40,891 bases of DNA from contig JAHJAV010000055.1 in the NCBI GenBank assembly GCA_018813685.1, positions 1 through 40,891 on the forward strand, in the 5' to 3' direction. Below the pieces are notes generated by a model, which saw only the letters and a program-made list of their open reading frames with translations, did not search any database and was not told the origin of the DNA. This document shows positions 3,261 through 22,163 of the stretch, in pieces (within the stretch, counting starts at the first letter, position 1; every line of letters starts with the position of its first letter). The position numbers and the translations under genes are program-made. Source of the DNA: Nanobdellota archaeon (lineage in GTDB: Archaea > Nanobdellota > Nanobdellia > Woesearchaeales > JACPBV01).

Positions 3261-4067
3261 ATGATTGTAAAAGAAGAATTTTTAAGCAAATTGAGAAGGT
3301 ACTTCTCGTTAAACCTCTATGAGGTTAAGATATGGACTGCATTATTAAGCAGAGGGGTTTCAACAGCAGGCGAGCTTTCGGATATAGCAGATGTTCCAAG
3401 ATCAAGAAGCTATGATGTTCTTGAGAGTTTAGAGAAGAAAGGATTTGTTGTTATGAAACTTGGAAAGCCAATAAAATATCTGGCTGTTGCCCCACAGGAA
3501 GTTTTAGAGAGAGTAAAGAAGAATGTCAAAGAAGATGCTAAAGGCCAGATTGACAGATTAGAAGAGTTAAAGGGAACAGAAGTCATTGGTGAATTAAACC
3601 AATTGCATACACAAGGAGTAGAGCTTGTAGAGCCTTCTGATTTGAGCGGTTCCTTAAGAGGAAGACATAACCTGTATAATCATTTAGACCTTACAATAAA
3701 GAATGCTGAAGACAGTGTAACCTTGATGACAACTACCCAGGGATTTATAAGAAAAGTAGAGGGGTTGAAGCCAACTTTTGAGAAGATTAAGAAAAGAGGA
3801 GTAAAGATAAGGATTGCTGCTCCAATAACAAAAGATGCTATGAGCGCTGTTGATGAATTAAAAGGAATAGCAGAAGTAAGGCACACTGACAGCAAGGCAA
3901 GGTTTTGCATTGTTGACGGCAAAGAGCTTGTGTTTATGGTTTTAGATGATAAAGAAGTACATCCAACCTATGATGTTGGTGTATGGGTAAACACACCATT
4001 CTTTGCGCAGGCATTAGATACTTTGTTTGACTCTGCCTGGAAAGGGATGAAACCAATAGGGAAGTAA
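3261..4067 (+). CDS. TrmB-family wHTH protein, TrmBL2-like (chromatin/regulator)
   Basis: F.LNLYE...AL...G..TAGELSDIADVPRSRSYDVLESLEKKGF N-terminal TrmB HTH plus C-terminal effector-like domain; 268 aa; strong SD gggggtga. Confidence 0.85.
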   Translation: MIVKEEFLSKLRRYFSLNLYEVKIWTALLSRGVSTAGELSDIADVPRSRSYDVLESLEKKGFVVMKLGKPIKYLAVAPQEVLERVKKNVKEDAKGQIDRLEELKGTEVIGELNQLHTQGVELVEPSDLSGSLRGRHNLYNHLDLTIKNAEDSVTLMTTTQGFIRKVEGLKPTFEKIKKRGVKIRIAAPITKDAMSAVDELKGIAEVRHTDSKARFCIVDGKELVFMVLDDKEVHPTYDVGVWVNTPFFAQALDTLFDSAWKGMKPIGK

Positions 4068-4091
4068 ATTCCTATTTTTTCTTTGTTTTTA

Positions 4092-4107
4092 TAATAAAAT
4101 TTATATA
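4092..4107 (+). promoter_or_regulatory. BRE/TATA promoter of the leader/aromatic operon
   Basis: A-rich taataaaa followed by TTTATATA (4100-4107), about 24 nt upstream of ATG 4132 (leaderless spacing). Confidence 0.6.
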
Positions 4108-4131
4108 TTGGAGCGTATTACCATGTATAAA

Positions 4132-4209
4132 ATGATAGTGCTAGAGAGAATAAATGCTGTTTTGGATGAGTTCTTTCTAGATAGAAGCTGCTACTTTTAC
4201 TTTTGGTAA
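4132..4209 (+). CDS. Putative attenuation leader peptide MIVLERINAVLDEFFLDRSCYFYFW (alternative start 4123)
   Basis: Translated directly from the sequence; 7 of the last 12 codons are Phe/Tyr/Trp; lies directly upstream of the aromatic biosynthesis operon. Confidence 0.75.
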   Translation: MIVLERINAVLDEFFLDRSCYFYFW

Positions 4210-4262
4210 GTCTCTGGGTTAGTCAGCTCAGGAGACTTCATTGTTCAACTTTTTATTCTTTT
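4208..4262 (+). terminator. Hairpin plus U-tract (candidate attenuator/terminator)
   Basis: AAGUCUC-UGGGUU-(AGUC)-AGCUCA-G-GAGACUU (4208-4238), followed by uuuuuauucuuuu (4250-4262). Confidence 0.6.
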
Positions 4263-4295
4263 AAGGCCAAAAAGGAGTAGACAGGATAATACAAA

Positions 4296-4314
4296 GAAAA
4301 AGCTTTGCTTTTTC
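4296..4314. repeat. Short palindromic element (copy 1)
   Basis: gaaaaagc-ttt-gctttttc; 17-nt core identical to 31003-31019. Confidence 0.7.
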
Positions 4315-4378
4315 AAAAAGTTTAAAAAGATAAGGTCATAAAAATGGAATAAGTAAACAAAATCAATAAGGAGAGAAA

Positions 4379-5197
4379 ATGGAACAAAAACTCATAGAAA
4401 AACTCGAAAAGCAGGCATTGCAGATCAGAATGGATGTGCTAGAGATGATAACAGAAGCTAAATCCGGGCATCCTGGCGGGTCGTTGTCTGCTGTTGATAT
4501 AATGACAGTGCTATACTTCCATAAGATGAGGTATAATCCTAAGAAGCCTAAGTGGGAAGATAGAGATAGGTTTGTGCTTAGCAAAGGGCATGCTTGCCCT
4601 GCATTATATGCTTGTTTAGCGAGAAGCGGTTATTTTCCATTGGCTAAATTAAAGACACTCAGAAAGATAGGATCTTGTCTGCAGGGACATCCTGAATCAA
4701 ATAAATGCTCTGGAATAGAGGCATCTACTGGGCCTCTTGGACAGGGATTGAGCTTTGCAAATGGTGTAGGCCTAGCGGGAAAGCTTGATAAGAAAGATTA
4801 CAAAGTGTATGTTATGCTGGGAGATGGTGAAGTGCAGGAAGGAAATATATGGGAAGCTGCAATGTTAGCTGCACATTACAAGCTGAATAATGTGATTGTA
4901 TTTTTAGACCATAACAGATTACAGATCGATGGTGAGCTGAAAGATGTGATGAATATAGAACCGATAAAGGATAAGTTTTCAGCGTTTGGATGGCATACTA
5001 TTGAGATAAACGGACATGATTTCAAAGAGATATTAAATGCACTGGATGAAGCAGATAAGGTAAAAGATAAGCCAATAATGATAATAGCAAATACAATAAA
5101 ATCAAAAGGTGTGGATTATATGGAAAACAAAGCAGAGTGGCATGGAAAGGCCCCTACTCAGGATCAGCTGAAAGAAGCGCTTGCGGAGTTGGTTTAA
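4379..5197 (+). CDS. Transketolase, N-terminal subunit
   Basis: SGHPGGSLS, DRFVLSKGHA, LQGHP, STGPLGQG, TPP motif GDGE..EG..WEA...N. Confidence 0.95.
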   Translation: MEQKLIEKLEKQALQIRMDVLEMITEAKSGHPGGSLSAVDIMTVLYFHKMRYNPKKPKWEDRDRFVLSKGHACPALYACLARSGYFPLAKLKTLRKIGSCLQGHPESNKCSGIEASTGPLGQGLSFANGVGLAGKLDKKDYKVYVMLGDGEVQEGNIWEAAMLAAHYKLNNVIVFLDHNRLQIDGELKDVMNIEPIKDKFSAFGWHTIEINGHDFKEILNALDEADKVKDKPIMIIANTIKSKGVDYMENKAEWHGKAPTQDQLKEALAELV

Positions 5198-6130
5198 ATG
5201 GCAGAGCTGAAAGCTACAAGAGACGGATATGGAGAAGGGCTTGTTGAAGCTGGAAAGAATGAAAGTGTGGTAGCGTTAGATGCTGATCTGGCAGAATCTA
5301 CAAGATCAATAAAGTTCAAGGAGAAATATCCTTTGCGGTTTTTTGATGTGGGTATAGCTGAGCAGAACCTTGTTGCAACAGCTGCTGGCCTTGCTGCATC
5401 TGGGAAGATACCTTTTGCGTCTAGCTTTGCTGTGTTTATTACAGGAAGGGCTTATGACCAGATAAGGCTTAATGCAGGAATCTCGCATCTCAATATGAAA
5501 ATTGTAGGGTCTCATGCCGGTTTATTGACAGGAGAAGATGGTGCTTCACATCAATCGTTAGAAGATATTTCATTGATGAGGGGAATACCTGGTATGGTAG
5601 TGATACAACCTTGTGATTTTGTTGAGGCGAAAAAGGCAACAATCGAGATTGCAAAATATAAGGGGCCTGTCTATCTTAGGTTATCTCGAGGTAAGGTTCC
5701 TGTAATCAATGATGAAAATTATAAGTTTGAGATTGGAAAAGGGATTATGCTGAAGCAGGGAAAGGATATTGCGATAATTGCAACAGGCGCTTTAGTAAAT
5801 GAAGCTTTAATTGCCAGTGATATGCTGAAAGAAAAAGGGATTGGTGCAAGAGTGATAAATATCCATACGATAAAGCCGATTGATAAAGAGATTATAATTA
5901 AGGCTGCTAAAGAAACTGGATGTGTGATAACAGCAGAAGACCACAGCATATACGGCGGATTAGGTAGTGCTGTTGCAGAGATACTTGCTGAGAACTGTCC
6001 AACTAAAATGCACAGGATAGGTGTTAATGATAAATTTGGCGAGTCAGGAGAGCCATCTGAGCTTTACAAGAAATATGGATTAACAGCTGAAGATATAGTT
6101 AAGGCTGCTGAAAAATTGTTAAAAAAATAA
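5198..6130 (+). CDS. Transketolase, C-terminal subunit
   Basis: [37 protein letters not shown]. Confidence 0.95.
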
Positions 6131-6146
6131 ATTAACGGAGGATAAG

Positions 6147-7160
6147 ATGATAATTGTATTAAAACCAAGGGCAAAGGAAAGTGAGGTTAAGGCTGTTGCT
6201 GAAAAGATAAAAAAGATGGGGCTTAAGCCGCATGTTTCAATGGGTGTAGAGAGAACAATAATAGGCGCAATAGGTGATGAATCATTGCTAAAAGAAGATC
6301 AGCTGAAAGCAATGGCTGTTGTAGAAAAGGTATTGCCCATAATGAAACCTTACAAATTAGTTTCAAGAGAGTTTCAAAAAGAAAATACTATAATTAAAGT
6401 AGGGGATGTAAAGATAGGCACAAATGATATTATTGTGATGGCTGGCCCATGCGCTGTTGAGAGTGAAAAACAGGTTATTGAAACTGCTAAAGCTGTAAAG
6501 AAAGCAGGAGGCCATATATTCAGAGGGGGAGCATTCAAACCAAGAACATCCCCATATTCATTCCAGGGAATGGGTGAGGAAGGATTAAAGTTATTAGCAA
6601 AAGCTAGAAATGTAACTGGAATGCCTATTGTGACAGAAGTCATGGATACAGCAGATGTTCCTTTGGTAGCGGATTATGCTGATATACTACAGGTAGGAAC
6701 AAGGAATATGCAGAACTTCAATCTGCTTAAGGCAGTCGGTAAAGTGAACAAGCCTGTAATGCTAAAGAGGGGATTAGCTGCTACATTAAATGAGTTTTTG
6801 ATGGCTGCTGAATATATCATGGCAGAAGGGAACCATAATGTAATATTATGCGAGAGAGGGATAAGAACATTTTGCACACATACAAGAAACACACTGGATT
6901 TGAATATTATTCCCATAATAAAGAAAGAGAGCCACCTTCCAATTATAGTTGATCCTTCGCATGGAACAGGGAATTATTCATTAGTTAGTCCAATGAGCAA
7001 GGCAGCTATTGCTTGCGGAGCAGATGGATTGATGATAGAAGTACATTCAAATCCAGAAGAAGCGACGTCAGATGGCGATCAGAGTTTGACGCCAAAGAGC
7101 TTTGCAAAACTGATGGAAGAGTTAAGGTCAGTTGCAAAAGCAGTAGGAAGAAGGTTATGA
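6147..7160 (+). CDS. aroF: DAHP synthase type I-beta with N-terminal ACT-like regulatory domain
   Basis: [44 protein letters not shown]; about 70-aa N-terminal domain like the Thermotoga enzyme. Confidence 0.95.
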
Positions 7161-8251
7161 TGGAAAAAGTAAGATTGAATCTTAGGAAGGAAATTGACAA
7201 TTCTTATGAGATTTTAATAGATAAGAATCTCTTGAGTAAAGTGCCATCTGATCTGAAGAAGAGCAATGTTGGAAATAGATATTTGATAATAACAGATTCC
7301 AACATAAAGAAATTGTTTGGAGATAATCTGCTTGATTTGATGAGGAAAGAGGGATTGAAGGTAGATATTCTATCCTTTAAGGCAGGAGAGCAGAGCAAGA
7401 ATCTTGAAACGCTTGGGGAATTGTTAAGTGGTGCTCAGAAGTTAGGGCTAGATAGAAAGTCAGCGATAATTGCTCTTGGTGGGGGGGTTGTCGGAGATAT
7501 AGCAGGGTTTGTGGCAGCTACATATATGAGGGGAATAAATTATGCGCAGATTCCAACTTCACTGCTTGCAATGGCTGATTCAAGTGTGGGTGGAAAGGTA
7601 GCTGTAGATTTACCTACTGGAAAGAATATGGCAGGGGCATTTCATCAACCAAAGAAGGTATATATGGATGTGTCTATATTAAATGATCTTCCGCAGAAAG
7701 AAATGATTAATGGATTATCTGAGGTAGTGAAGCATGCTTTTATCATAGATAAAGGGCTTTTTGATTTTATCAATAAGAATCTTAGTAAAATATTGGATAA
7801 AGATTTAGATGTATTAGTTCAATTAGTGAAAAGAAACTGTGAGATAAAGGCAATGATTGTTGAGAAGGATGAAAAAGAAGCTGGACTGAGGAAGATTGTA
7901 AACTATGGGCATACAATAGGCCATGCTATAGAGACAATGACTCATTACAAAAAATATTCACATGGAGAAGCGGTTGCTATGGGGATGGTTGTAGAGGGAT
8001 TGATTGCCAGAAAGATTGGAATGCTTTCTGAAGATGGGTTGAGATTGCAGAATGAGATGATAAAGAAAGTTGGTCTGCCTGTAAAGATCCCTAAACTTGA
8101 AGCTGATAAAGTAATTAATGAATTAAAAAAGGATAAGAAAGTAGTGGGCGGTAAGATAGAATTTGTTTTGTTAGAGGCAATAGGAAAATCAAAGTATGGT
8201 GTGAGTGCCTCTAATGAAATAATAAAAGAGGCTTTAGAGGAAAGTATATGA
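7157..8251 (+). CDS. aroB: 3-dehydroquinate synthase (classical AroB)
   Basis: [50 protein letters not shown]; start ATG overlaps the aroF stop (ATGA 7157-7160). Confidence 0.95.
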
Positions 8252-9684
8252 TAGCTGTGCCGATAGCAGCTTCTATGACAAAGGAAGCTCTAAAAGACAT
8301 GAAAGAGGCCTCTAAATCTGCTGATGTGATTGAGTTAAGGCTTGACTGCATTAAAGATTTAGGGCTAGAGATTTTGTTAGCTAAGCGAATAAAACCAGTG
8401 ATTGTAACTACAAGGAGCAAGGCTGAGGGTGGAAGATCTAATATTAGTGAATCACGTAGAATAAAGTTAATTGAAAAGGCTATTGATCTTGGGGCTGAGT
8501 TTGTTGATGTTGAATTTTCTTTAGGCAGTGAGAAGATAAAAAGGATAATTTCTATAAGGGGCAAGACTAAAGTGATTGTGTCTTATCATAATTTTAAGGG
8601 GACTGATGAAAAAGAGATTATTGCGAAGTATGAAAAGATAAAACGATTAAAGCCAAATGTGATAAAGATAGTTAGTTTTGCAAACTCAATAGATGATAAT
8701 GCTGTTATGCTTAGACTGCTAAAGACTGCTAAAAAGGAAGGAAAGGATCTGATAGCTTTTTGCATGGGTGAGAAAGGTGAAGTGAGCAGGATATTATGCA
8801 ATTTTTTTGGCAGCTTTTTGACATTTGCTTCATTATGCAAGGGAAAGGAGTCTGCTCCAGGCCAGCTGGATGTAAAAACATTGAAGGGCTTGTATAGAAT
8901 AAATGAATTCAGAAATGGAGAAGTTTTTGGGTTAGTGGGAAATCCCGTAAAACAAAGTAAAGGCATATTGATACATAATGATGCTTTTAAGAAACTTGAG
9001 ATGAACAAAGTGTATGTAAATTTTTTAGTTGAAGATTTAAGTAGTTTTGTGAAAAGTTTTAGAAAGTTGATCAAGGGGTTTAGTGTAACTATTCCGTTTA
9101 AGCGTGAGATAATAAAACTTATTGATGGAGTAGATTTAACTGCTGGAAAGATTGGGGCAGTGAATACAGTAATTAATGAAAATGGGAAATTGATAGGGTA
9201 TAATACAGATGTAAAAGGAGCAATCAATGTGATAGAATCAAAGATGAAGATAAAAAACAAAAGAGTCTTGATGATCGGAGCAGGAGGAGTTGCAAGAGCA
9301 ATAGGTTATGGTGTGAAGGGCAAGGGCGGAAGATTGATAATATTGAACAGAACTGTAAGCAGGGCTAAAAGCCTTGGAAATGAACTTAAATGTGAGTATG
9401 GTGGACTAGATAAATTAAATAAGATCGATAAGGTGGATATTATAGTAAATGCAACTTCAATCGGGATGGTTCCAAAGGTTAATGAAATGCCCCTAGGTAA
9501 GGATAAACTTAGGAGAATAATTAAAAAAGGCGCATTGGTTTTTGATTCAGTGTATAATCCAAGAAAGACGAAACTTTTAAAAGAAGCTGAAAAACTAGGA
9601 TGCAATACAGCAGACGGATATGATATGTTCATCAATCAGGCTGATGAGCAATTCAAGCTGTTTACAGGGAGGAGATTAATATGA
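8248..9684 (+). CDS. aroDE: Bifunctional type I dehydroquinate dehydratase / shikimate dehydrogenase (AroD-AroE fusion)
   Basis: N-terminal ELRLD, SYHNF, MGEKG..SR, SAPGQ; C-terminal SVTIPFK, GAVNT, GYNTD, GAGGVARA, NRT. Confidence 0.93.
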   Translation: MIAVPIAASMTKEALKDMKEASKSADVIELRLDCIKDLGLEILLAKRIKPVIVTTRSKAEGGRSNISESRRIKLIEKAIDLGAEFVDVEFSLGSEKIKRIISIRGKTKVIVSYHNFKGTDEKEIIAKYEKIKRLKPNVIKIVSFANSIDDNAVMLRLLKTAKKEGKDLIAFCMGEKGEVSRILCNFFGSFLTFASLCKGKESAPGQLDVKTLKGLYRINEFRNGEVFGLVGNPVKQSKGILIHNDAFKKLEMNKVYVNFLVEDLSSFVKSFRKLIKGFSVTIPFKREIIKLIDGVDLTAGKIGAVNTVINENGKLIGYNTDVKGAINVIESKMKIKNKRVLMIGAGGVARAIGYGVKGKGGRLIILNRTVSRAKSLGNELKCEYGGLDKLNKIDKVDIIVNATSIGMVPKVNEMPLGKDKLRRIIKKGALVFDSVYNPRKTKLLKEAEKLGCNTADGYDMFINQADEQFKLFTGRRLI

Positions 9685-10961
9685 AATTAGTTGTAGAAAA
9701 AACAGAGAAACTTGAAGGAGAGATTACTATTCCTGGCTCTAAATCACATACAATAAGGGCTGTAATAATCGCTTCATTGGCAGAAGGGATTTCAAAGATA
9801 AAAAATCCTTTAAAGTCAGATGACACAATGGCTGCTGTAAATGCTTGCACTGCTTTTGGCGCAAAGATAAATACAGATAATGAAAGTGAGTGGGTAATAT
9901 CAGGATTTAATCATAATCCGCAGAAGCCAGAAGGAGTTATTAATATGATGAATTCAGGAACTTCTCTTAGGCTGATTTCAGGTGTAATAGCTGCTCTTTG
10001 TGATTTTGAGATTGAGTTAGATGGTGATGCTTCATTAAGGGCAAGGCCAATGCAGCCTTTGCTTAAATCACTTAATCAATTAGGTGCAGAAGCTGTGTCT
10101 GTCAGCAATAATGGATACTGCCCAATAAAGATAAAAGGGAAGATGATTGGTGGAGATACTGAAGTAGTTGGAATGTCTTCCCAGTATATTTCCAGTTTGC
10201 TGATAGCATGTCCGCTGCTTGAAGAAGATACTGAGATAAGGGTTGTTAAGCCAAATGAAATTCCTTACATACGAATAACAATGAAATGGTTGGATGAGCA
10301 AGGCATCAAGTATGAAGTGTCTGAGGATTTTACTAAGTTTAAAGTTTTTGGAAAGCAAAGGTACAAATCTTTTGAGAAATCAATTCCAGCAGACTGGAGC
10401 TCAGCAGCATTTCCTTTAGTGGGGGCTGCAATTGTTCCATCAAATGTCTTGTTGAAAGGATTGGATATTAATGATGTTCAAGGAGATAAAGCTATTATTG
10501 ATTATCTTAAGAAAATGGACGCTGACGTTAGTATTGAAGGAGATGGAATAAGGATAAAAGGCAAGGCTTTGAAAGGATGTGAGCTTGATTTGAATGCAAC
10601 TCCTGATGCACTGCCTGCTTTAGCTGTACTGGGATGTTTTGCAGAAGGCACAACTGTCTTGTTTAATGTTCCACAAGCCAGGATAAAGGAAACAGACAGA
10701 ATAAAAGTAATGACAGAAGAGCTTGAAAGAATGGGTGCTGATATAAAAGAGAGGGATGAGGGATTGATAATACATAAAAGTGAGTTGAAAGGAAATAAAG
10801 TAAGAGGCCATAGTGATCATAGGATAGTTATGGCATTAAGCTTAGCTGGGATGATATCAACTGGAAAGACAGAGATAACAACTGCAGAGTCTATTGGTGT
10901 AACTTTTCCAGATTATGCTAAAAGTATGAAGGCCTTAGGGGCTAAAATCGAGGTGGTTTAG
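9681..10961 (+). CDS. aroA: EPSP synthase
   Basis: PGSKSHTIRA, NSGTSLR, SL..RPM, SSQYISSLL, RIKETDRI, DHRIVMA. Confidence 0.96.
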   Translation: MKLVVEKTEKLEGEITIPGSKSHTIRAVIIASLAEGISKIKNPLKSDDTMAAVNACTAFGAKINTDNESEWVISGFNHNPQKPEGVINMMNSGTSLRLISGVIAALCDFEIELDGDASLRARPMQPLLKSLNQLGAEAVSVSNNGYCPIKIKGKMIGGDTEVVGMSSQYISSLLIACPLLEEDTEIRVVKPNEIPYIRITMKWLDEQGIKYEVSEDFTKFKVFGKQRYKSFEKSIPADWSSAAFPLVGAAIVPSNVLLKGLDINDVQGDKAIIDYLKKMDADVSIEGDGIRIKGKALKGCELDLNATPDALPALAVLGCFAEGTTVLFNVPQARIKETDRIKVMTEELERMGADIKERDEGLIIHKSELKGNKVRGHSDHRIVMALSLAGMISTGKTEITTAESIGVTFPDYAKSMKALGAKIEVV

Positions 10962-10962
10962 T

Positions 10963-12141
10963 ATGATGGGAAATAGTTTTGGAAGGTTGTTTAGGGTTAC
11001 AACTTGCGGTGAGTCTTATGGGATAGGGAAAGGTTCTGGATTATCAGTTATAGTAGATGGAGTGCCGCCTGGACTTAAGATTACAAAAGAAGATATACAG
11101 AAGGAGCTTGATAAAAGAAAGCCTGGAGTGGGTAAGTTGAACAGCCCTAGAAAAGAGACAGACCAATGCGCAATATTTGCAGGAATTGGGCAGGAAGGTG
11201 TTACAACAGGGGCTCCATTAGGAATCATAATCTATAATGTAGATACTCAAAAAGTGCATATTGAGCAGTATAGATCCTATAAGGATATATTTAGGCCAGG
11301 CCATGCAACCTATCCATTCTTTATGAAATATGGAGAGTCACAGGATTGGTGCGGTGCAGGAAGAGCATCTGGAAGAGAAACTGTAGCTAGAGTAGCAGGC
11401 GGAGCTATTGCAAAGATCATATTGGAAAGAGAAGGGATTGAGATAGTCTCATATACCAAAGAATGTATGGGGATAAAAACAAAAGAAATGGGTTTTGATG
11501 AGATAAAAAAGAATCGTGGAAAAAATGAGATAAACTGCCCTGATCTTGAAGCTGCTAAAAAAATGGAAGATGCTGTGTTAAAGATAAAGGGTGAAGGAGA
11601 TACAGCAGGAGGAGTAATAGAGCTTATTGCAAGAGGTGTTCCCCCTGGTTTAGGAGAGCCTGTCTTTGACAAGCTGAATGCAACAATAGCTCATGCTCTT
11701 GCTTCAATCGGAGCAGTTAAAGGAGTAGAGTTTGGAGCTGGATTTGGTGTAGGTAATATGAAAGGCTCTGAGAATAATGATCAGCCATATTTGACTAAAG
11801 ATGGAAAAGTTAGGTTCAAGACTAATAATGCCGGAGGATTTTTAGGCGGCATGACTAATGGAGAAGAGATTGTAGCTAGGATAGCTGTAAAGCCAACTCC
11901 TACAATATCAAAAAAACAGACTTCAATAAATATGAAGACAATGAAAGAAGAAGTGCTTTCACCGATAACAAGAAGAGATCCTACATTAGTTGGAAGGCTT
12001 TGGGCAGTGGCAGAGGCAATGATGGCAATAGCTATACTTGATTCATTGTACATGGCTAAAGCATATGATAGTATGGCTAGATTGGATAAGAAATGGATTA
12101 AGCTTAAAGAGTTAATAAAATGGACAAAGACAAGCCATTGA
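10963..12141 (+). CDS. aroC: Chorismate synthase (divergent motifs)
   Basis: RPGHA, GRASGRETVARVAGGA, GLGEPVFDKL, VKGVEFGAGF, TNNAGG.LGG, KPTPTI. Confidence 0.92.
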   Translation: MMGNSFGRLFRVTTCGESYGIGKGSGLSVIVDGVPPGLKITKEDIQKELDKRKPGVGKLNSPRKETDQCAIFAGIGQEGVTTGAPLGIIIYNVDTQKVHIEQYRSYKDIFRPGHATYPFFMKYGESQDWCGAGRASGRETVARVAGGAIAKIILEREGIEIVSYTKECMGIKTKEMGFDEIKKNRGKNEINCPDLEAAKKMEDAVLKIKGEGDTAGGVIELIARGVPPGLGEPVFDKLNATIAHALASIGAVKGVEFGAGFGVGNMKGSENNDQPYLTKDGKVRFKTNNAGGFLGGMTNGEEIVARIAVKPTPTISKKQTSINMKTMKEEVLSPITRRDPTLVGRLWAVAEAMMAIAILDSLYMAKAYDSMARLDKKWIKLKELIKWTKTSH

Positions 12142-12971
12142 TAGGAATAATAGGCGGAACAGGGCAGATGGGCCAGTGGTTCAAGAGATTCTTTGAGAGT
12201 AAAGGCTATAAAGTTGTTATAGCCAGCAGAAAGACCAGCATTAGTATACAGGAGTGCGCTTCTAAATGCGATATTGTGATAGTGAGTGTTCCGATAGATA
12301 TTACAGTTAAAACAATAAAAGAGATAGGGCCATTGATAAAGGAAGATGGATTGTTTATGGATTTAACTTCTATAAAGAAGGAGCCTGTTGAAGCTATGCT
12401 GAAATACAGCAAATGCGCAGTTATAGGAACACATCCTGTTTTTGGGCCTTCTGTAAAGACTATAAATAACCAGACAGTGGTATTGTGCCCTGCAAGGCCA
12501 AAGAAATGGCTTGAGTTTGTAAAAGATATATTTGAGAAGAATGGCGCAATTGTTAAGGTCACAACTCCTGAGAAGCATGACAAGATGATGTCTATCATAC
12601 AGGGATTAACACATTTTTCAACTATATGTGTAGCTCATGCTTTGAAAAAATTAGGAGTAGATGTTGAAGAAAGTATGCAGTATACTTCTCCAATCTATAA
12701 ATTAAGGATGGATATGGTCGGAAGGTTATTGAATCAGAATCCTGCATTATATGCAGATATAGCTATGCTTAACAGCGAGAACAAGAGATCAATAGAGGAA
12801 TATATCAAATCTACTAGAGAGCTGATAGGGATAATAAAAAGGAAGGATAGAGATGATTTTATCACATTCTTCAAAGAAGGCTCTAATTTTCTTGGAGATT
12901 TCAAAAAAGAAGCAACAGAGTATTCAGATTATGTTATAGAGCAATTGGTCAAGAAAGGGAGGCTAAGATGA
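12120..12971 (+). CDS. tyrA: Prephenate dehydrogenase (no chorismate mutase domain)
   Basis: GIIGGTGQMG Rossmann motif, DLTSIK, HPVFGP, EKHDKMMSIIQGLTHF. Confidence 0.9.
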   Translation: MDKDKPLIGIIGGTGQMGQWFKRFFESKGYKVVIASRKTSISIQECASKCDIVIVSVPIDITVKTIKEIGPLIKEDGLFMDLTSIKKEPVEAMLKYSKCAVIGTHPVFGPSVKTINNQTVVLCPARPKKWLEFVKDIFEKNGAIVKVTTPEKHDKMMSIIQGLTHFSTICVAHALKKLGVDVEESMQYTSPIYKLRMDMVGRLLNQNPALYADIAMLNSENKRSIEEYIKSTRELIGIIKRKDRDDFITFFKEGSNFLGDFKKEATEYSDYVIEQLVKKGRLR

Positions 12972-13777
12972 AGATCGCTACATTAGGTCCAGCAGGAACA
13001 TTCAGCCATGAGGCTTTACTTAAACGGGATAGGAAAGTTGAGATAATATTCAAGAATACTGTATGGGATGTTTTTGAAGCAGTGGATAATGATGAAGCTG
13101 AAGAAGGCATAGTTCCTATTGAGAATTCTGTTTCTGGCTCGATAGGGCTTACATTAGATGCACTTATGGAGTTTAAACTAAATATAATTGGAGAGATAAT
13201 ACTTCCTGTAAAGCATAATCTTGTTGGGTATGATGGAATAAAGGACATTAAAGTACTGTATGTACATCCTGTAACGTATGAGCAGTGTGAGAAGTTTATT
13301 AGGAAGAATATTAATGGAGTAAAGGTTATACAGACGAGCTCTAATGCTGCTTCTGCAGAGATCATTTCAAAAGAGAAGGATAAGACCAAGGCAGCGATTG
13401 TGCCAAGAGAAGCTATAGAGATATATAAATTAAAGGTAATAAAAAATGATATACAGGATAATAAGTTTAATGTTACAAGATTCGTTGTATTAAGCAAAAG
13501 TGATGGGAAGAAAAGTTCACGTGAGAGAACTTCTATTGCGATATATCCTCAGGCAGACAAGCCAGGACTGTTGTATTCTTTATTAGGCATATTTGCAAAG
13601 AGAAATATAAACCTGACTAAGATAGAGTCAAGACCGTCAAAAGGAAAGCTAGGTGATTATATCTTTTTTATAGATATGCAAGGCAATAAAGAAGATGAAA
13701 AGATAAAGGAAGCTTTTAAGATTATAGAAGAGGATTTCTTCCTTAAGGTTCTAGGATCTTACCCAAGAGAGTATTGA
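12968..13777 (+). CDS. pheA: Prephenate dehydratase with ACT domain
   Basis: LGPAGTFSHEA, VPIENS..G, NVTRF, DKPGLL, INLTKIESRP, LGSYP. Confidence 0.95.
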   Translation: MKIATLGPAGTFSHEALLKRDRKVEIIFKNTVWDVFEAVDNDEAEEGIVPIENSVSGSIGLTLDALMEFKLNIIGEIILPVKHNLVGYDGIKDIKVLYVHPVTYEQCEKFIRKNINGVKVIQTSSNAASAEIISKEKDKTKAAIVPREAIEIYKLKVIKNDIQDNKFNVTRFVVLSKSDGKKSSRERTSIAIYPQADKPGLLYSLLGIFAKRNINLTKIESRPSKGKLGDYIFFIDMQGNKEDEKIKEAFKIIEEDFFLKVLGSYPREY

Positions 13778-13779
13778 AT

Positions 13780-15300
13780 ATGGATGAGGAAAGATTAGCA
13801 CAGACATTGCATAATTATGAGAGAAAAGTTTTGAGTGTTCTTGATAAAGAGAGTACTGTAAGTGAGATTTCTTCTAAGAGCGGTTTAAAGGATATAGAAG
13901 TGATGAGAGGATTGCAATGGTTAGAGAATAAAGGCATTGTAAAGTTAAGGGAGGATGTGAAAGAGATAGTTGAATTGGATTCTAATGGTGAGAAGTATAG
14001 GGAAGGGGGGCTGCCTGAAAGAAGGTTTCTTAAGTTTGTTAAGAAAGATACTCCTGTTTCTGAGATTTTAAAAGAAGCAAAACTAAGCAATGAAGAGGTT
14101 AGTGTATGTTTAGGTGTGTTAAAGGGGAAGGCTGCTATAGCCATTAGGAAGGATAAGGAATTGATGGTTAGTATATTACCTCAGGGTGAGAAGATACTAC
14201 AGAAAGAAAGTTTAGAAGAGCTGTTTCTTAAGAAGAAATTTCCGATTTTGTTGAGTGAGCTTACAGATGAAGATAAATTTGCTCTGGATAGTTTAAGAAA
14301 AAGAAAGAATATTGTGAAAGTAGAGACTAGGAAAATAAGGAAAGCTGAGCTGACTGAATTTGGAAGGAAGTTAAGTAAGTCTGGAATAAAGTTTGAAGAG
14401 ACTTATGATAGGTTGACTCCTGCTATGGTTAGGGATGGTTCCTGGGCTAACAAAAAATTTAGAAGGTATGATGTAAAGATAAATGTTCCTTTAGTTTTTG
14501 GCGGCAAGAAACAACACTATGCAAGGTTTTTAGATGATGTTAGGGGTAAGTTTATCTCTTTGGGTTTTAGTGAGATGTTCGGGCCTATTGTAGAGACAGA
14601 ATTCTGGGATATGGATGCTTTATTTATGCCTCAGTTTCATTCTGCAAGAGATATACATGCTGCTTATTATGTGAAAGAGCCAAAGTATGGGAAACTTGAT
14701 AATTACATTGTAGAAAGGGTTAAAGAGTCTCATGAAATAGGGAAAGGAACAATAAGCAAAGGATGGCAGTATAAGTTTGATGTTAACAAGACTAAACAAT
14801 TGATATTAAGGACGCAGGGAACTGCTTTGTCTGCAAGGATGCTTGCTTCTAAAGAGTTGAAGATTCCAGGAAAGTATTTTGGGATTGCACGCTGTTTCAG
14901 GCCGGATGTTGTTGATGCTACACATAGTGCTGATTTTAATCAAGTAGAAGGGATTGTGATTGAAGAAGGTCTTAATTTCAGGCATCTTAAAGGATTGTTG
15001 AAGATGTTTGCAGAGGAATTTGCAGAGACAGACCAGATAAAGATAACTCCTGCTTATTTTCCATTTACAGAGCCGTCTGCTGAGCTGCATGCAAAGCATC
15101 CTGAGCTTGGGTGGATAGAGTTAGGAGGTTCTGGTATATTCAGACCTGAACTTGTAAAACCTTTGTTAGGGAGAGAGATATCTGTTTTAGCATGGGGGCT
15201 AGGGATTGATAGGTTAGCTATGTTTAAATTAGGGATAAAAGATATAAGGGAATTATTTTCACATAATTTAGATTTTTTGAAAGATGTTAAGGTAGTTTAA
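13780..15300 (+). CDS. pheS: Phenylalanyl-tRNA synthetase alpha subunit (archaeal type)
   Basis: W..DALFMPQ.HSARD, RCFRPD..DATH..DFNQVEG, YFPFTEPSAE, WGLGIDRLAM; ATG at 13780. Confidence 0.95.
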   Translation: MDEERLAQTLHNYERKVLSVLDKESTVSEISSKSGLKDIEVMRGLQWLENKGIVKLREDVKEIVELDSNGEKYREGGLPERRFLKFVKKDTPVSEILKEAKLSNEEVSVCLGVLKGKAAIAIRKDKELMVSILPQGEKILQKESLEELFLKKKFPILLSELTDEDKFALDSLRKRKNIVKVETRKIRKAELTEFGRKLSKSGIKFEETYDRLTPAMVRDGSWANKKFRRYDVKINVPLVFGGKKQHYARFLDDVRGKFISLGFSEMFGPIVETEFWDMDALFMPQFHSARDIHAAYYVKEPKYGKLDNYIVERVKESHEIGKGTISKGWQYKFDVNKTKQLILRTQGTALSARMLASKELKIPGKYFGIARCFRPDVVDATHSADFNQVEGIVIEEGLNFRHLKGLLKMFAEEFAETDQIKITPAYFPFTEPSAELHAKHPELGWIELGGSGIFRPELVKPLLGREISVLAWGLGIDRLAMFKLGIKDIRELFSHNLDFLKDVKVV

Positions 15301-15301
15301 A

Positions 15302-16963
15302 ATGCCAACAATAAAATTTTCATTAAAGGACTTGCAGAATTTGGTTGGAAAGAAGCTTGAGATTGATGAAGTTTCTAAGCTAGTTGAGTATGGCAAGGGT
15401 GAGTTAGAGGGTTATGATAAGGATTCTGATGAAGTTAGTGTGGAGTTTGGAGATACAAACTTGCCTTATTTATGGTCTATTGAGGGATTTGCTCGGTTGG
15501 TTAATGGTGTGTTGGGGGGTTGTAAGGGCATACCTAAGATAGAAATTAAAAAAAGTGATTATAAATTAATTGTTGATGAATCTGTTAAATATGTAAGGCC
15601 ATATATTGCTGCTTTTGTAGCTAAAGGGCATAAGGTAGATGATTATCTGATAAAGCAGATGATACAATTGCAGGAGAAGTTGTGCGAGAGTTATGGGCGT
15701 CGGAGGTTGAAGGTAGCGATTGGTGTTTATTCTTATGATAAAATAAAGTTTCCTGTTCATTACAAAGCAACTTCGCCAGAGTCTGTTAAGTTTATACCTT
15801 TAGAGTTTAAGAAAGAGATGACCCAACAGGAGATTCTGGAAGAGCATCCAACTGGAAAAGAGTATGCATGGATATTAAAGGATGCTAAGAAATACCCTAT
15901 ATTGGTTGATAGTGCTGATTCTGTGTTGAGCTTTCCGCCTATAATAAACTCTAATTTAACTGGGAGGGTTGTTTCGGGAGAAGAGCATCTTTTTGTAGAG
16001 TGTACTGGAATAGAGCTTGAGCCTTTGCTTTTGGCTATGAATATAATGGCGTATGCTTTTTATGATAGAGGATTTGAGATATATTCTGTTGATGTTAAGT
16101 ATGAAAATAAGAAAATTACAACTCCCCTTTTGTTTAATGATAAGATAAAGATTACTCTGGAGCAGGTCAAATCACTTTTAGGTTTAGAACTTAAGAATTC
16201 TGAGATTAAAATGTTGCTTGAGAAGATGGGTTATGATGTAGGTAGTGATTTGAATGTTAAGATTCCATCTTATAGGAAGGATATACTTCATCCTAATGAT
16301 GTTATAGAAGATATAGGAATTGCTTATGGTTATGATAAATTTGATGAGATTCCATTGACCTCATATACTGTTGGAGAGACTTCTTTGCTGGTTAAGTTTA
16401 GAAATAATATAAGGGAGATGCTTATCGGATTAGGGTTCCAGGAGGTTTTGAGTCCGATATTATCCAATAAGGCTGTGCTTTACGATAAGATGAATATTCC
16501 TGATTTTGGCACTATAGAACTTACTAATTTCATGTCTGAGACTTATTCGTGCGTAAGGAGTTGGCTGTTGCCTATGCTTATTGATTTTTTATCTAAGAAT
16601 AAGCATTTTGAGTATCCACAAAGGGTTTTTGAGCAGGGGCTAGTTACTGTGCACAAAGGTGATTCTGTTGTGGATTATGAGAGAATTGCTGTTGTTTCTG
16701 CTAATGATAAAGCTGATTATACAGAGATAAGGCAGGTTATAGATTATTTGTTTAGGATGTTGGATGTTTCTTATAGTGTTGAGGACTGTGAGCATGATTC
16801 TTTTATTCCTGGAAGGGTCGGAAGAGTTATTGTAAATGGAAAGAAAGTAGCTTATATTGGGGAGATATCACCTAAGGTTCTTAATAATAATGGGATAGAA
16901 GTTCCTGTTGTAGGGCTAGAGCTGAATATTTCTGAGTTGTTTGAAATTGTTGGAAAGAACTAG
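15302..16963 (+). CDS. pheT: Phenylalanyl-tRNA synthetase beta subunit (archaeal type)
   Basis: MPTI start, VRPYI, QLQEKL, LSFPPIINS, PSYRKDILH..DVIEDI.IAYGY, SFIPGR. Confidence 0.95.
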   Translation: MPTIKFSLKDLQNLVGKKLEIDEVSKLVEYGKGELEGYDKDSDEVSVEFGDTNLPYLWSIEGFARLVNGVLGGCKGIPKIEIKKSDYKLIVDESVKYVRPYIAAFVAKGHKVDDYLIKQMIQLQEKLCESYGRRRLKVAIGVYSYDKIKFPVHYKATSPESVKFIPLEFKKEMTQQEILEEHPTGKEYAWILKDAKKYPILVDSADSVLSFPPIINSNLTGRVVSGEEHLFVECTGIELEPLLLAMNIMAYAFYDRGFEIYSVDVKYENKKITTPLLFNDKIKITLEQVKSLLGLELKNSEIKMLLEKMGYDVGSDLNVKIPSYRKDILHPNDVIEDIGIAYGYDKFDEIPLTSYTVGETSLLVKFRNNIREMLIGLGFQEVLSPILSNKAVLYDKMNIPDFGTIELTNFMSETYSCVRSWLLPMLIDFLSKNKHFEYPQRVFEQGLVTVHKGDSVVDYERIAVVSANDKADYTEIRQVIDYLFRMLDVSYSVEDCEHDSFIPGRVGRVIVNGKKVAYIGEISPKVLNNNGIEVPVVGLELNISELFEIVGKN

Positions 16964-17290
16964 TTATTTATCCTTCTTATGCTCTTTTATTATCTTTCTA
17001 AGTTCTGTGTATTTGTTCTTTTTTGAGCTGCATGAGAATTCCCTGCAGGTTTTTGGGCGTTTGTTGTAGATTGTGCATGTATTGTTTTCTAAGTAGATGC
17101 AGCTCTTATCGTCTTTTTGGGCTAAGATGTTTGCTCCAGCCATATCTGCCTGCTTGAAATTGTCTGTAGGTTCTTTTATCATAGTATCATATTTTCCAGA
17201 AAGGTATTCTTGTTTTGTAAGGTCAACTATAAATAGTTTACAGCATGCTCCGCATCTTGAGCACTCTACCTTATTCGACCGTTTTGCCAT
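16964..17290 (-). CDS. YkgJ-family cysteine-cluster protein (putative Zn/Fe-binding)
   Basis: CxxCGxCC ... CIYL....CTIY..RP..CR.F.C. Confidence 0.85.
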   Translation of the reverse strand: MAKRSNKVECSRCGACCKLFIVDLTKQEYLSGKYDTMIKEPTDNFKQADMAGANILAQKDDKSCIYLENNTCTIYNKRPKTCREFSCSSKKNKYTELRKIIKEHKKDK

Positions 17291-18012
17291 TCTCTCAGAA
17301 TTCTTATCGAGGTTCTTTTTATGTCTGGAATGTTGCCTTTGGCTTTTAGATTATATTTTAATGCAATGTCTTCTATTGTCTTTTCCTTGTCTTCATCTAC
17401 ATCTACTTTGAAGAAAGACTCTATCTTTCCCGGAAATTTCTCCATTATACCCATAACTATCATATCAGGATCTTGTACTTTTGTGAAGTCTGTTGTGCCT
17501 GTAAGAGCATGCTTCAATTCGTCTTTTTCTTCATAAGGTATAACCCCTGGAGTGTCTAAGAACATTATTTGTTTGTCTGCCCTTATCTTCTGCATGCTTT
17601 TGGTGAATCCACTCAATGAGCTTGTTGGAGCTGATTTTTTTCCTTTCATTGCATTAATTAAGGATGATTTGCCAACATTAGGGTAGCCTAGAACACCTAC
17701 TGTGAATTGGTCTTTTCCTTTGTATGCTTTTTTGCCTTCCATCAAAATAGTGTTTCTCAAGATAGTTGTGCCTAGATGTTTTGTAGCAGAGATAAAGACA
17801 GACGGCCTTAGATGAGATTTGTATTTTTCTACTAGTTCTTTGTTTACCAAGTCACATTTAGTTATGACATAGATTATTGGCTTCTTAGATCTTCTTATGT
17901 TTGATTCTATCTCTGGGTTTCTTGTTTCTTCTACTAGCCTTGAATCTAACAATAACAAGAGAATGTCTGATTTGAATATTACCTTATTGACAATGTTCCA
18001 ATAGTCTTTCAT
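17266..18012 (-). CDS. Circularly permuted ribosome-biogenesis GTPase (RbgA/YlqF family)
   Basis: G4 TKCD precedes G1 GYPNVGKSS and G3 DTPG. Confidence 0.9.
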   Translation of the reverse strand: MKDYWNIVNKVIFKSDILLLLLDSRLVEETRNPEIESNIRRSKKPIIYVITKCDLVNKELVEKYKSHLRPSVFISATKHLGTTILRNTILMEGKKAYKGKDQFTVGVLGYPNVGKSSLINAMKGKKSAPTSSLSGFTKSMQKIRADKQIMFLDTPGVIPYEEKDELKHALTGTTDFTKVQDPDMIVMGIMEKFPGKIESFFKVDVDEDKEKTIEDIALKYNLKAKGNIPDIKRTSIRILREWQNGRIR

Positions 18013-18088
18013 TTGTTTATGAGGGTGGTGTTATGTTTTTAAGGGTTTCTATATGGGGTGATTAACTAAGATATAATAAAATATACAA

Positions 18089-18205
18089 CAAGAAAATTAA
18101 AAATTTTCTTGAGTTTAGTAAAATTATAAACTGGATAAACAACGAGAAAAATTTTCCTACGGAAAATTTAATTCTCTAGTTTATAAAGTTCTATACTTTA
18201 TAAAC
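18089..18205. repeat. Cluster of three perfect inverted repeats
   Basis: caagaaaatt-aaa-aattttcttg (18089-18111); aaattttcc-tac-ggaaaattt (18149-18169); gtttataaagt-tctat-actttataaac (18179-18205). Confidence 0.75.
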
Positions 18206-18229
18206 AATAAAAAAATTAGAATAAAAGAA

Positions 18230-18730: not shown

Positions 18731-18813
18731 TTTTTCCTCCAATCTCTTTATTTTTTGGCAAAGTCACCTTGTGCCTAAGAGATTATTCTTGTTTTTGGTT
18801 ATTTTAATCCTGA

Positions 18814-19083: not shown

Positions 19084-19096
19084 ATTAATCACGAAT

Positions 19097-19843: not shown

Positions 19844-19845
19844 AT

Positions 19846-21255: not shown

Positions 21256-21256
21256 T

Positions 21257-22162: not shown

Positions 22163-22163
22163 T

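Follow-up and report, generated by a model that had tools for sequence, protein, structure and literature searches.

Ribosome-mediated attenuation is a textbook bacterial mechanism; archaea couple transcription to translation, and their termination is unlike that of bacteria. Did archaea ever evolve ribosome-mediated attenuation? A short open reading frame (ORF) on contig JAHJAV010000055.1 of a Nanobdellota archaeon, whose 40,891 nucleotides are the window analysed here, raises this question. A preliminary description had proposed that the ORF encodes an aromatic leader peptide that controls an aromatic amino acid operon through a stop-adjacent hairpin and a U-tract. Full-text literature searches returned no description of an amino-acid leader peptide in archaea, where the known regulators of aromatic biosynthesis are DNA-binding proteins.

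The leader region and the operon downstream

The locus comprises the following features, numbered by window position.

3261–4067, + strand: TrmB-family gene directly upstream of the leader (Pfam TrmB and Regulator_TrmB)
4100–4107, + strand: P1 TATA box, TTTATATA, with 24 nt from box end to leader ATG (sequence)
4132–4209, + strand: leader ORF, 25 codons plus TAA (sequence)
4171–4176, + strand: two Phe codons in the mid-block Glu-Phe-Phe-Leu-Asp (codon alignment)
4192–4206, + strand: terminal run Tyr-Phe-Tyr-Phe-Trp, the proposed sensing codons (sequence, codon alignment)
4208–4238, + strand: hairpin H2, 13 bp, starting inside the stop codon (folding, −13.9 kcal/mol)
4239–4245, + strand: CAUYGUU-like motif directly 3′ of H2 (by eye; most of the 18 closer homologues, plus G061 and G003)
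4250–4262, + strand: two T-runs, T5 (4250–4254) then TTCTTTT (4256–4262) (sequence)
4255–4278, + strand: H3, a U-rich arm paired with an A-rich arm (AAAAAGGA type) (folding; about 9 of 18 homologues)
4296–4314, no strand assigned: 8-bp palindromic hairpin adjoining P2 (terminator-like on the minus strand in the terminator scan; this genome only)
4314–4328, + strand: P2, an A-rich BRE-like stretch plus TTTAAAAA (4321–4328), 50 nt ahead of the tkt ATG
4370–4373, + strand: GGAG Shine-Dalgarno-like motif ahead of tkt (sequence)
4379–16963, + strand: gene set proposed to be controlled, namely tktN, tktC, DAHP synthase, DHQ synthase, aroDE, aroA, aroC, tyrA, pheA, pheS and pheT (Pfam)

The TATA box, the ORF, the hairpin, the T-runs and the second TATA-like element were all found where the preliminary description had placed them, and Pfam agrees with the downstream genes, tkt-aro-tyrA-pheA-pheST, that it had named. 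The genes of this set are contiguous or overlapping and encode a split transketolase, DAHP synthase, DHQ synthase, an aroD-aroE fusion, EPSP synthase, chorismate synthase, prephenate dehydrogenase, prephenate dehydratase-ACT and PheRS alpha and beta. The leader ORF starts with the ATG at 4132 and ends in Tyr-Phe-Tyr-Phe-Trp-stop, and the spacing of P1 to this ATG implies that the mRNA would be leaderless or nearly so. An in-frame ATG at 4123 was discarded as an alternative start, being too near the TATA box for use.

Among 1952 small intergenic ATG-ORFs of this genome, 19 (~1%) reach at least five aromatic residues per 7-codon window, and thus aromatic richness alone is not rare; five consecutive aromatic residues at the ORF end occur in the leader ORF alone. 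It is conservation across genomes, not this single genome, that carries the case beyond chance. Searches at E values up to 10 returned no Pfam or NCBIfam match for the leader peptide and no Rfam match for positions 3900–4600, including Phe_leader RF01859 and other curated leaders. Metatranscriptome run X7 contributed two contigs only, one within the TrmB-like gene (3601–3798) and one within tktC (5342–5566), and neither touches the leader.

The stability of H2 was matched by 0.1% of 1080 windows from the same locus. The CAUYGUU-like motif behind it is possibly a pause or termination point, and the T-runs are a candidate archaeal oligo-U termination signal. The U-tract that had been claimed is present at 4250–4262, but conservation did not extend to it: by eye, no more than about half of the 18 closer homologues show a T-run of at least 4 within 40 nt past H2, which is followed by an interrupted U-rich motif. 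A bacterial-type terminator scan did not flag H2 and found no GC-stem-plus-U8 terminator; archaeal termination rules differ. H3, whose count and arm conservation were judged by eye, could alternatively be a protein-binding palindrome, given that both arms are sequence-conserved.

Single-sequence folds showed neither arm of H2 to have a conserved alternative partner, as a mutually exclusive antiterminator would require. Consensus folding of MAFFT alignments by RNAalifold yielded either 6 pairs or none; the consensus is poor because the variable stems misalign, and per-sequence folds with stem-index counts were used in its place. In minimum-energy folds of 26 loci, the aromatic run pairs in about 9 with the 20 nt that precede the next start, a low-complexity U-to-A/G pairing indistinguishable from chance. 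Two further candidate structures were rejected: an in-ORF hairpin, H1, as a general feature, since it beats synonymous recodings in only 5 of 18 homologues (13 of 18 not significant), and base-pairing between the start codon and the CAU in the post-H2 motif, the extensions of which, examined by eye, lack covariation. The output originally proposed, termination by hairpin and U-tract, is thus unsupported as stated: the T-runs are unconserved, the terminator scan is negative, no antiterminator pairing was found and the second promoter-like element is itself conserved.

The preliminary description had itself cautioned that the TATA-like element at 4321–4328 might be an independent promoter. This caveat was borne out to the extent that the element is conserved: a regular-expression search found a P2-like element in 12 of 18 homologues of the window's subfamily, and P2 resembles the promoter that precedes tkt at leader-free loci. 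In the P2-bearing subfamily, the operon may therefore be transcribed independently of the leader.

Leader ORFs in related genomes

Homologues of the ORF and hairpin lie upstream of tkt at 7 of the 12 closest tkt loci. A covariance model detected the element in 8 of 14 family genomes and 7 of 151 order genomes, each time as a single copy; all of these genomes are aroC-positive, and a phylum-wide sample of 150 other genomes gave no match. For genomes missed by the model, we applied a fixed criterion, an ATG-ORF of 10–60 codons with at least 4 aromatic residues in the last 7. We took 20 loci upstream of aroC, of which 7 showed aroC only, leaving the operon start outside judgement; the loci taken did not include those of G064, G074, G114 and G153, four aroC-positive genomes of the order sample. 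An ORF satisfying the criterion lies directly ahead of the aromatic cluster's first gene at 14 of the 17 loci with a visible cluster start, compared with 0.42 expected from the genome-wide rate (Poisson P for 13 or more, 1e-15). Relaxed inspection yielded two further leader ORFs (G140 and G062), and a pattern scan of reference genomes returned 15 stretches, 6 of them real and 9 chance matches, mostly bacterial. In total, 34 such leader ORFs were collected from 19 families of the order and four public or metagenome contigs; three come from unpublished genomes (G005, G013 and G145), and no count rests on these three alone. The association of an aromatic-codon leader ORF and hairpin with the aro operon is thus confirmed to exceed chance, and the expectation of short ORFs ending in F/Y/W codons, together with a hairpin, at related operons held well beyond close kin.

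Each of the 34 leader ORFs immediately precedes genes of aromatic biosynthesis. The first downstream gene may be tkt, DAHP synthase, an ADH-synthase-type/DeoC-type aldolase, chorismate mutase or trpE; what is constant is the pathway, whereas the first gene differs. The single leader ahead of trpE-trpG-trpD has two Trp codons among its last six. The reading frame is open in 34/34, at lengths of 19 to 56 codons and with all three types of stop codon (TAA 19, TAG 10, TGA 5). At least 4 of the last 7 codons specify aromatic residues in 32/34, a hairpin of −8 or lower (dG) abuts the stop in 31/34, and a TATA-like octamer ends 20–28 nt ahead of the ATG in 29/34, a spacing that fits the probable leaderless start proposed earlier. 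Conservation therefore covers the ORF with its aromatic codons, the spacing of the promoter and the hairpin next to the stop, and the combination occurs only ahead of aromatic biosynthesis genes.

F/Y/W make up 29% of the 913 leader residues against 9% genome-wide (F 19.2%, Y 7.4% and W 2.1% versus 4.5%, 3.8% and 0.9% in the genome's long ORFs). Many leader N-termini are mutually unrelated, and divergent leaders are alike in composition, not sequence; in codon alignments, Tyr codons alternate between TAT and TAC and the order of F and Y shifts between genomes. Codon-blind alignment gaps are multiples of 3 in 10/13 cases inside the ORF versus 11/31 outside. Substitutions are only mildly skewed to the third codon position (minimum changes 43/45/55). 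The mid-block Glu-Phe-Phe-Leu-Asp is conserved within the window's subfamily only; many divergent leaders have the aromatic run without it. Its Leu codon is CTA in 16/18, a codon that accounts for 11% of the genome's Leu codons, and such nucleotide conservation, including a minor codon, means that an RNA- or DNA-level constraint overlaps the coding one. The stem positions of H2 show 3–6 canonical pair types each, with 35% identity in the 5′ arm, and H2 folds better on the + strand in 15/18 (G-U, 27/192 pairs). These compensatory pair types and the better + strand folding mark H2 as an RNA element, not a DNA operator.

Promoter arrangement varies among the relatives. By eye, at least five (G133, G099, G086, G054 and G061) have no visible second promoter, and in these the next gene bears a GGAGG- or GGTGA-type motif, which fits co-transcription of leader and next gene. 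In four others (G145, L052, G161 and G009), the ORF abuts the upstream gene and has no promoter of its own.

The TrmB-like gene upstream of the leader is 75–92% identical among relatives. Used as an anchor in metagenomes, it retrieved 80 loci, where pheST or tkt usually comes next with no leader in between; the covariance model matched 2 of these loci, and one more variant (L069/L071) was recognized by eye. Because most of the 80 loci lack the leader, the TrmB-like regulator is not tied to this element. At several of these loci, the gene after the regulator is, by eye only, a putative chorismate mutase. At 11 of 26 loci, trpE is preceded by another, distinct mini-ORF, which is conserved and has one Trp codon. 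Among the Thr-, Cys-, His- and Trp-rich small ORFs of the window's genome, none lies ahead of the matching pathway and nothing convincing emerged.

Proposed mechanism and alternative explanations

We favour, with moderate confidence, a translated cis-acting leader peptide that would sense charged Phe/Tyr-tRNA and control the aro operon. Transcription from P1 would start at the leader ATG or a few bases from it, and the Phe/Tyr (and Trp) codon run of the 25-codon ORF would read charged aromatic tRNAs. Should Phe-tRNA or Tyr-tRNA run short, the ribosome would linger on the last codons, where its footprint would overlap the 5′ arm of the stop-abutting H2. Whether H2 forms would then set the share of upstream transcription that yields expressed aro-tyrA-pheA-pheST mRNA, most probably by read-through of the downstream U-rich, factor-assisted termination zone, with P2 providing basal expression. 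The output step could be termination, translation or RNA stability. Judging by known footprints, a ribosome whose A site holds an aromatic codon would extend only about 0–7 nt into H2; this geometry does not fix the sign of the switch, since a ribosome at the stop codon would cover H2 too. Also weighing against the proposal are the weak third-position bias, the nucleotide-level conservation of the mid-block, the P2-like elements of the subfamily, the unconserved T-runs with the negative terminator scan and no antiterminator found, and the many metagenome loci at which the TrmB-like gene is followed by tkt but no leader is present. The sensor part of this proposal is well supported; the switch and its direction, the part played by the hairpin, ribosome stalling and translation itself are inferred, with frame conservation, stop codon turnover and TATA spacing as indirect signs of translation. 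The earlier interpretation as a whole is therefore partly supported.

The same promoter, ORF and hairpin might instead constitute an independent small gene whose stable sRNA, peptide or both act in trans, leaving P2 alone to drive the operon. The P2-like promoters of the subfamily and their resemblance to those of leader-free loci agree with this, the stop-adjacent hairpin could merely stabilize the 3′ end of a short RNA, and precedents are described for rnTrpL/peTrpL and sRNA154 (PMC12612679). We nevertheless regard a trans-acting gene as unlikely: the element is single-copy in each genome, always co-oriented with and immediately ahead of aromatic genes, its N-terminal peptide sequence is unconserved, no P2 is visible in at least five relatives, and in four the ORF has no promoter of its own. 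Chance occurrence of an ORF in T-rich intergenic DNA, for which the ~1% of equally aromatic-rich small ORFs in this genome might speak, is of negligible probability given 34 loci that conserve position, promoter spacing and hairpin, and 14 observed cases where 0.42 were expected.

It is quite unlikely that the ORF is incidental and that selection has kept a non-coding cis-regulatory RNA or protein-binding DNA sites, for example for the TrmB-like protein, the ‘codons’ being a U-rich element. Nucleotide-level conservation of a CTAG-containing block with little synonymous change points that way, as do opposite-strand covariance-model matches from an inverted repeat within the ORF, the 5/18 homologues with in-ORF structure above synonymous recodings and the conserved arms of H3. 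That structure is not general, however, and an incidental ORF would not explain a frame kept open in every leader across such different lengths and three stop types, an ATG whose spacing to the TATA box is fixed, in-frame recurrence of Tyr codons, or divergent leaders that share composition without sequence. Nor does this reading find support in the TrmB-like gene, which mostly occurs without the element, in Rfam, which gave no match, or in a search for Tar boxes, which gave none in 3900–4400 (11 window matches at up to 3 mismatches against 12.4 expected by chance). Last, the leader could be a TnaC-like arrest peptide that responds, within the tunnel of the ribosome, to an aromatic amino acid in free form and stalls at or next to the stop, independently of tRNA charging. 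The critical codons do lie right at the stop, the mid-block sits 6–11 residues from the C-terminus in the window's subfamily, and the mini-ORF ahead of trpE has a conserved peptide-like motif with one Trp codon only. We consider an arrest peptide very unlikely, as the mid-block is missing from many divergent leaders with the aromatic run, and sensing of charged tRNA gives the logic expected of a biosynthetic operon more simply.

Relation to known systems and significance

The closest bacterial counterparts of the tRNA-sensing leader proposed here are the Phe attenuators pheL, before pheA, and pheM, before pheST (Rfam Phe_leader RF01859). Common to both are a run of Phe codons in a short ORF, followed by an RNA hairpin, ahead of Phe/Tyr biosynthesis and PheRS genes, and presumably a logic resting on ribosome position. 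Unlike pheL and pheM, the archaeal leader has a BRE/TATA promoter, a leaderless start, interleaved Tyr codons, a hairpin that abuts the stop and a second promoter before the operon, with no 1:2, 2:3 or 3:4 alternative pairing found and no GC-stem-plus-U8 terminator. Archaeal termination relies on oligo-U and FttA/aCPSF1, and termination at the archaeal leader would need this machinery. TnaC of the E. coli tna operon likewise places its regulatory event at the very end of a ~24-codon leader, and in both a stalled ribosome would hide stop-adjacent RNA from a termination factor; TnaC, however, senses free Trp, serves a catabolic operon, needs W-D-P residues and uses Rho. TrpY of Methanothermobacter is a DNA-binding regulator of aromatic biosynthesis with a palindrome upstream of BRE/TATA. 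Tar (TK0271) of Thermococcus is described in similar terms (PMC6737238). Both share pathway and domain of life with the leader but act as DNA-binding proteins.

In mycobacteria, Cys-responsive leaderless short ORFs with a run of cognate codons form the first cistron of a biosynthetic operon, and their output is described as exposure of the masked ribosome-binding site of the gene that follows (Canestrari et al., bioRxiv 10.1101/834739). The leaderless design, common there to several loci, would recur here, where a start at the ATG is suggested by TATA spacing in 29/34; the mycobacterial ORFs, as that account presents them, differ in being bacterial, and run-to-next-start pairing at the archaeal loci is seen, in low-complexity form, in ~9/26. 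The account in PMC12612679 describes rnTrpL/peTrpL as dual-function attenuator RNAs of bacteria and sRNA154 as carrying a leaderless 20-codon ORF, tiny leaderless ORFs being translated in archaea. A small transcript that both codes and folds is the common element; in that account sRNA154 is no amino acid sensor, and the archaeal aro leader has no known trans target.

We tentatively propose, while holding it somewhat less than an even prospect, that an order of small-genome archaea uses ribosome-read leaders as amino acid sensors, namely the Phe/Tyr aro leader and the Trp-codon trpE mini-ORF. These would represent the first such attenuation in Archaea, operating through oligo-U/FttA-type termination and not a bacterial intrinsic terminator. 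The 34 natural variants vary in where the stop lies (G003, G006 and G012 have it shifted by 2 codons), in how many codons they have and in whether a second promoter is present, and are thereby akin to a mutational series that makes the question of archaeal attenuation directly testable. The leader signature helps annotators to spot unannotated regulatory small ORFs, and the set points to regulatory sophistication in reduced-genome, uncultivated archaea.

The leader locus in the window

The preliminary description had placed a TATA box, a short ORF ending in aromatic codons, a hairpin at its stop codon and a U-tract upstream of the tkt-aro-tyrA-pheA-pheST operon, and the sequence bore this out, with each element at its reported place in the window.

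Features of the leader region and of the remainder of the window (basis in brackets)
4100–4107, +, TATA box, 24 nt ahead of the leader ATG at 4132 (sequence)
4132–4209, +, leader ORF, 25 codons, C-terminal end Tyr-Phe-Tyr-Phe-Trp-TAA (sequence)
4208–4238, +, H2, the stop-adjacent hairpin, 13 bp, dG −13.9 kcal/mol (fold)
Directly 3′ of H2, +, CAUUGUU motif (sequence)
4250–4262, +, two T-runs (sequence)
4255–4278, +, H3, the next hairpin, with a U-arm and an A-arm (fold)
4321–4328, +, TTTAAAAA of P2, a second promoter-like element (sequence)
Between P2 and tkt, +, GGAG motif (sequence)
4379, +, tkt start codon ATG (sequence)
Downstream genes: split transketolase, DAHP synthase, DHQ synthase, aroDE, aroA, aroC, tyrA, pheA (PDT-ACT), pheS, pheT (Pfam)
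17266–33063, −, long ribosomal protein/SecY cluster (Pfam)
33599–34888, +, DNA methyltransferase gene (Pfam)
35717–37078, −, single ORF with small- and large-subunit primase domains (Pfam)

A fold as stable as H2 occurred in only 0.1% of 1080 windows from the same locus. Just 5′ of P2 lies an 8-bp palindromic hairpin (4296–4314) whose minus strand scored terminator-like; none was seen in the relatives. Judged by its genes, the host genome (G000) is archaeal: the window carries ribosomal protein S4e, a fused archaeo-eukaryotic primase and the SecY/ribosomal cluster (Pfam), and named public records with the same element bear the depositor titles Candidatus Woesearchaeota archaeon or uncultured Methanosarcinales archaeon. 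Among the 1952 small intergenic ATG-ORFs of G000, the leader alone ended in five consecutive aromatic residues. Since 19 of the 1952 were equally aromatic-rich (at least five aromatic residues per 7-codon window), the single-genome evidence favours a non-chance leader only weakly, and the case depends on comparison.

Distribution and composition of the leader

Upstream of tkt, 7 of the 12 closest tkt loci carried a homologous ORF that ends in the same way, plus a post-stop hairpin and a P2-like element; one (G009) had an aromatic-rich ORF of 23 codons without the hairpin, and in four a different gene lay immediately 5′ of tkt. R1, a covariance model of the leader, matched 8/14 genomes of the family and 7/151 of the order sample, with exactly one copy each, and had zero matches in a phylum sample of 150 other genomes. 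Chorismate synthase (aroC) was found in 14/14 family and 29/151 order genomes, and every R1 match fell in an aroC-positive genome. A pattern scan of reference genomes gave 15 matches, of which 6 were real, and one new named locus (L052). Chorismate synthase scores in the family and order genomes formed two classes (~365–400 and ~465–480 bits), even inside one family, which suggests two aro gene lineages; the R1-detected leader mostly accompanied the lower class, with G011 and G116 as exceptions.

For aroC-positive genomes that R1 missed, we applied a fixed criterion to the DAHP synthase locus or to as much as 13 kb of sequence 5′ of aroC: an ATG-ORF of 10–60 codons with at least four aromatic residues among the last seven. 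Seven of 20 aroC loci contained aroC alone and stand outside the following count. At 14 of the 17 loci with a visible aromatic-cluster start, such an ORF lay directly upstream on the same strand, where 0.42 were expected at the genome-wide rate of 0.062 per kb of strand (Poisson P (≥13) 1e-15). The leader was visible under relaxed inspection in G140 and G062 (the G140 ORF terminates within the hairpin and has its aromatic run internally), and G117, among the same 17 loci, had no leader. Many divergent leaders lack N-terminal similarity to the window's peptide. That of G012, 56 codons long, repeats Phe-Phe-Asn units and contains 15 aromatic residues, and in G003, G006 and G012 the ORF extends two codons into H2, with the stop within the 5′ arm.

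The full set of 34 leaders comes from 19 coded families of the order and four public or metagenome contigs; three are from unpublished genomes (G005, G013 and G145), and no count rests on these alone. The conservation that the preliminary description had singled out as a check, an aromatic-codon ORF with a hairpin before related aro operons, was found in this set. The leaders are 19–56 codons long, and their 913 residues comprise 19.2% F, 7.4% Y and 2.1% W (4.5%, 3.8% and 0.9% in the genome's long ORFs). A TATA-like octamer ends 20–28 nt upstream of the ATG in 29/34, a stop-site hairpin of −8 kcal/mol or better is present in 31/34, and the stop codons are TAA (19), TAG (10) and TGA (5). Of the 29 aroC-positive order-sample genomes, all but four were inspected, and the leader is present in at least 20 when G009 is included. 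Because the first downstream gene differs, being a DeoC-type aldolase (ADH-synthase route) in G008, chorismate mutase in G051 and DAHP synthase in G002 and G063, the constant partner of the leader is the pathway and no particular gene. The leader observation is real and conserved.

At three loci, the first ORF after the leader heads the aromatic cluster and has no Pfam match (L156 1174–1815, L154 5776–6081 and L037; 213 aa in G086, 101 aa in G078 and 85 aa in G116). The spacer between leader and tkt holds a GC-rich, strongly self-complementary insert of ~150 nt in G005 (L005, unpublished) and tandem promoter-like units bearing small hairpins in G013 (L007, unpublished).

The gene upstream of the leader (window 3261–4067) belongs to the TrmB family (Pfam), and its stop adjoins the ORF in 3 of the 34 leaders and also in G009, outside the 34. 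Its identity is 75–92% across loci where that of tkt is 50–75%, and in 80 metagenome loci (L060–L139) it is followed by pheST or tkt at about equal frequency. Because R1 matched 2/80 of these TrmB-anchored loci, plus one variant by eye, the TrmB-like gene is a conserved neighbour and no dedicated partner of the leader. The arrangement acetyl-CoA synthetase / TrmB-like / (aro operon) / pheST is fixed, and such conservation of the TrmB-like gene, next to enzymes of 50–75% identity, is unusual. In Thermococcus these genes are activated by Tar, which binds a palindrome (PMC6737238); no Tar palindrome was found near the leader in the window.

Probable translation of the leader and the hairpin at its end

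Several features argue for coding. The reading frame is open in 34/34 leaders although lengths vary, the start lies at a fixed distance from the promoter and all three stop codon types are seen at the hairpin base. Distinct gap events, counted in a codon-blind alignment, had a multiple-of-3 length in 10/13 cases in the ORF, 3/10 upstream and 8/21 downstream. TAT and TAC interchange at Tyr codons, the order of F and Y varies among genomes, and divergent leaders have composition in common but not sequence. Against coding, the third-position excess is only mild (minimum changes 43/45/55), and a CTAG-containing mid-block is kept at the nucleotide level, with CTA in 16/18 closer homologues of the window's leader versus 11% of Leu codons. 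An inverted repeat within the ORF is able to form a hairpin; it was rejected as a general feature because it exceeds synonymous recodings in 5/18 only.

H2 might instead be a protein operator, which would retain its sequence, or a DNA palindrome, which would show no strand preference. Counted from the base, each position of the stem holds 3–6 canonical pair types, the 5′ arms are 35% identical and 27/192 pairs are G-U. The + strand is the more stable in 15/18 (sums −229.7 versus −179.3 kcal/mol), and H2 is among the best 2.6% of its own locus's windows in 16/18. Both alternatives were rejected; because pairing is kept with varied sequence and the fold is strand-biased, H2, on this comparative evidence, is an RNA structure.

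The termination switch at a U-tract, which the preliminary description had attached to H2, received no clear support in that form: T-runs of at least four follow H2 in about half of the 18 (by eye), and a bacterial-type terminator scan left H2 unflagged. No conserved alternative pairing partner was found for either H2 arm, and the U-rich codon run paired with the purine-rich stretch before the next start in ~9/26 minimum-energy folds, a low-complexity pairing that proves nothing. The earlier caveat of a second promoter-like element held. Because P2 was detected by regex in 12/18 homologues and resembles the promoter before tkt in loci without the leader, the operon of the window's subfamily is probably served by a basal promoter of its own. 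P2 is not visible in at least five of the divergent relatives, where a motif of the GGAGG or GGTGA type precedes the following gene (by eye), which fits co-transcription of the leader and the next gene.

Going by known ribosome footprints, ~3–7 nt of H2 would be covered when the last aromatic codon occupies the A site, and more when the ribosome is at the stop codon. A ribosome lingering at the leader end would be positioned exactly to keep H2 open, and the output would run through this stop-abutting hairpin, with the direction of the switch depending on kinetics.

Parallels before trpE and known leader systems

In G069, a leader of 32 codons (L148 728–826), two of whose last six encode Trp, lies directly before trpE-trpG-trpD fused to aroA...aroC. 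At 11/26 order-sample trpE loci, a mini-ORF of mostly 8–14 codons with one Trp codon lies ≤450 nt upstream of trpE, at 6705–6734 of contig C2 in the window's genome (L180 1093–1122) and in L172–L175, L177, L178, L181, L182, L190 and L191. The motif Asp/Tyr-Cys/Tyr-x-Trp near its stop, set after seeing the data, had an expectation of 0.06. The mini-ORF shows strong nucleotide conservation and few synonymous changes, and downstream of it come a conserved RNA stretch and a second promoter-like element; it may be either an RNA element or a Trp-type leader acting as a peptide sensor. On both views, the placing of W ahead of trp genes and of F/Y ahead of aro-tyrA-pheA genes agrees with sensing of specific amino acids.

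Directly before trpE in G000, C2 ~6886–7030 (L141 ~590–735) holds a TATA box and a TTG-ORF of 37 codons whose stop overlaps the trpE start, with a perfect 10-bp inverted repeat and then TTCTT. For this pre-trpE region, Rfam returned only a sub-threshold Phe_leader (23.9 bits versus 55), and the fold z-score was −1.36. Tiny G000 ORFs with Cys-rich tails (Cys-Gly-Cys-Gly-Cys-Cys and similar) were seen on C94 (18742–18804), C71 (3110–3175), C117 and C79 (minus strand), one of them followed by a rubrerythrin-like ORF and another by a permease-like ORF (both by eye); none lies upstream of cysteine biosynthesis genes.

Bacterial Phe leaders are among the nearest known mechanisms. Searches of open-access papers and bioRxiv listed no amino-acid leader peptide and no ribosome-mediated attenuator from an archaeon. 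Also near in mechanism to the window's leader are mycobacterial cysteine-sensing leaderless short ORFs (bioRxiv 10.1101/834739), attenuator-derived dual-function RNAs (PMC12612679) and an archaeal sRNA whose leaderless ORF has 20 codons (PMC12612679). The best-supported reading of the leader is a translated, cis-acting peptide that senses Phe/Tyr-tRNA supply, which would make it an archaeal form of known leader-peptide control in a setting, the archaeal one, that is new.
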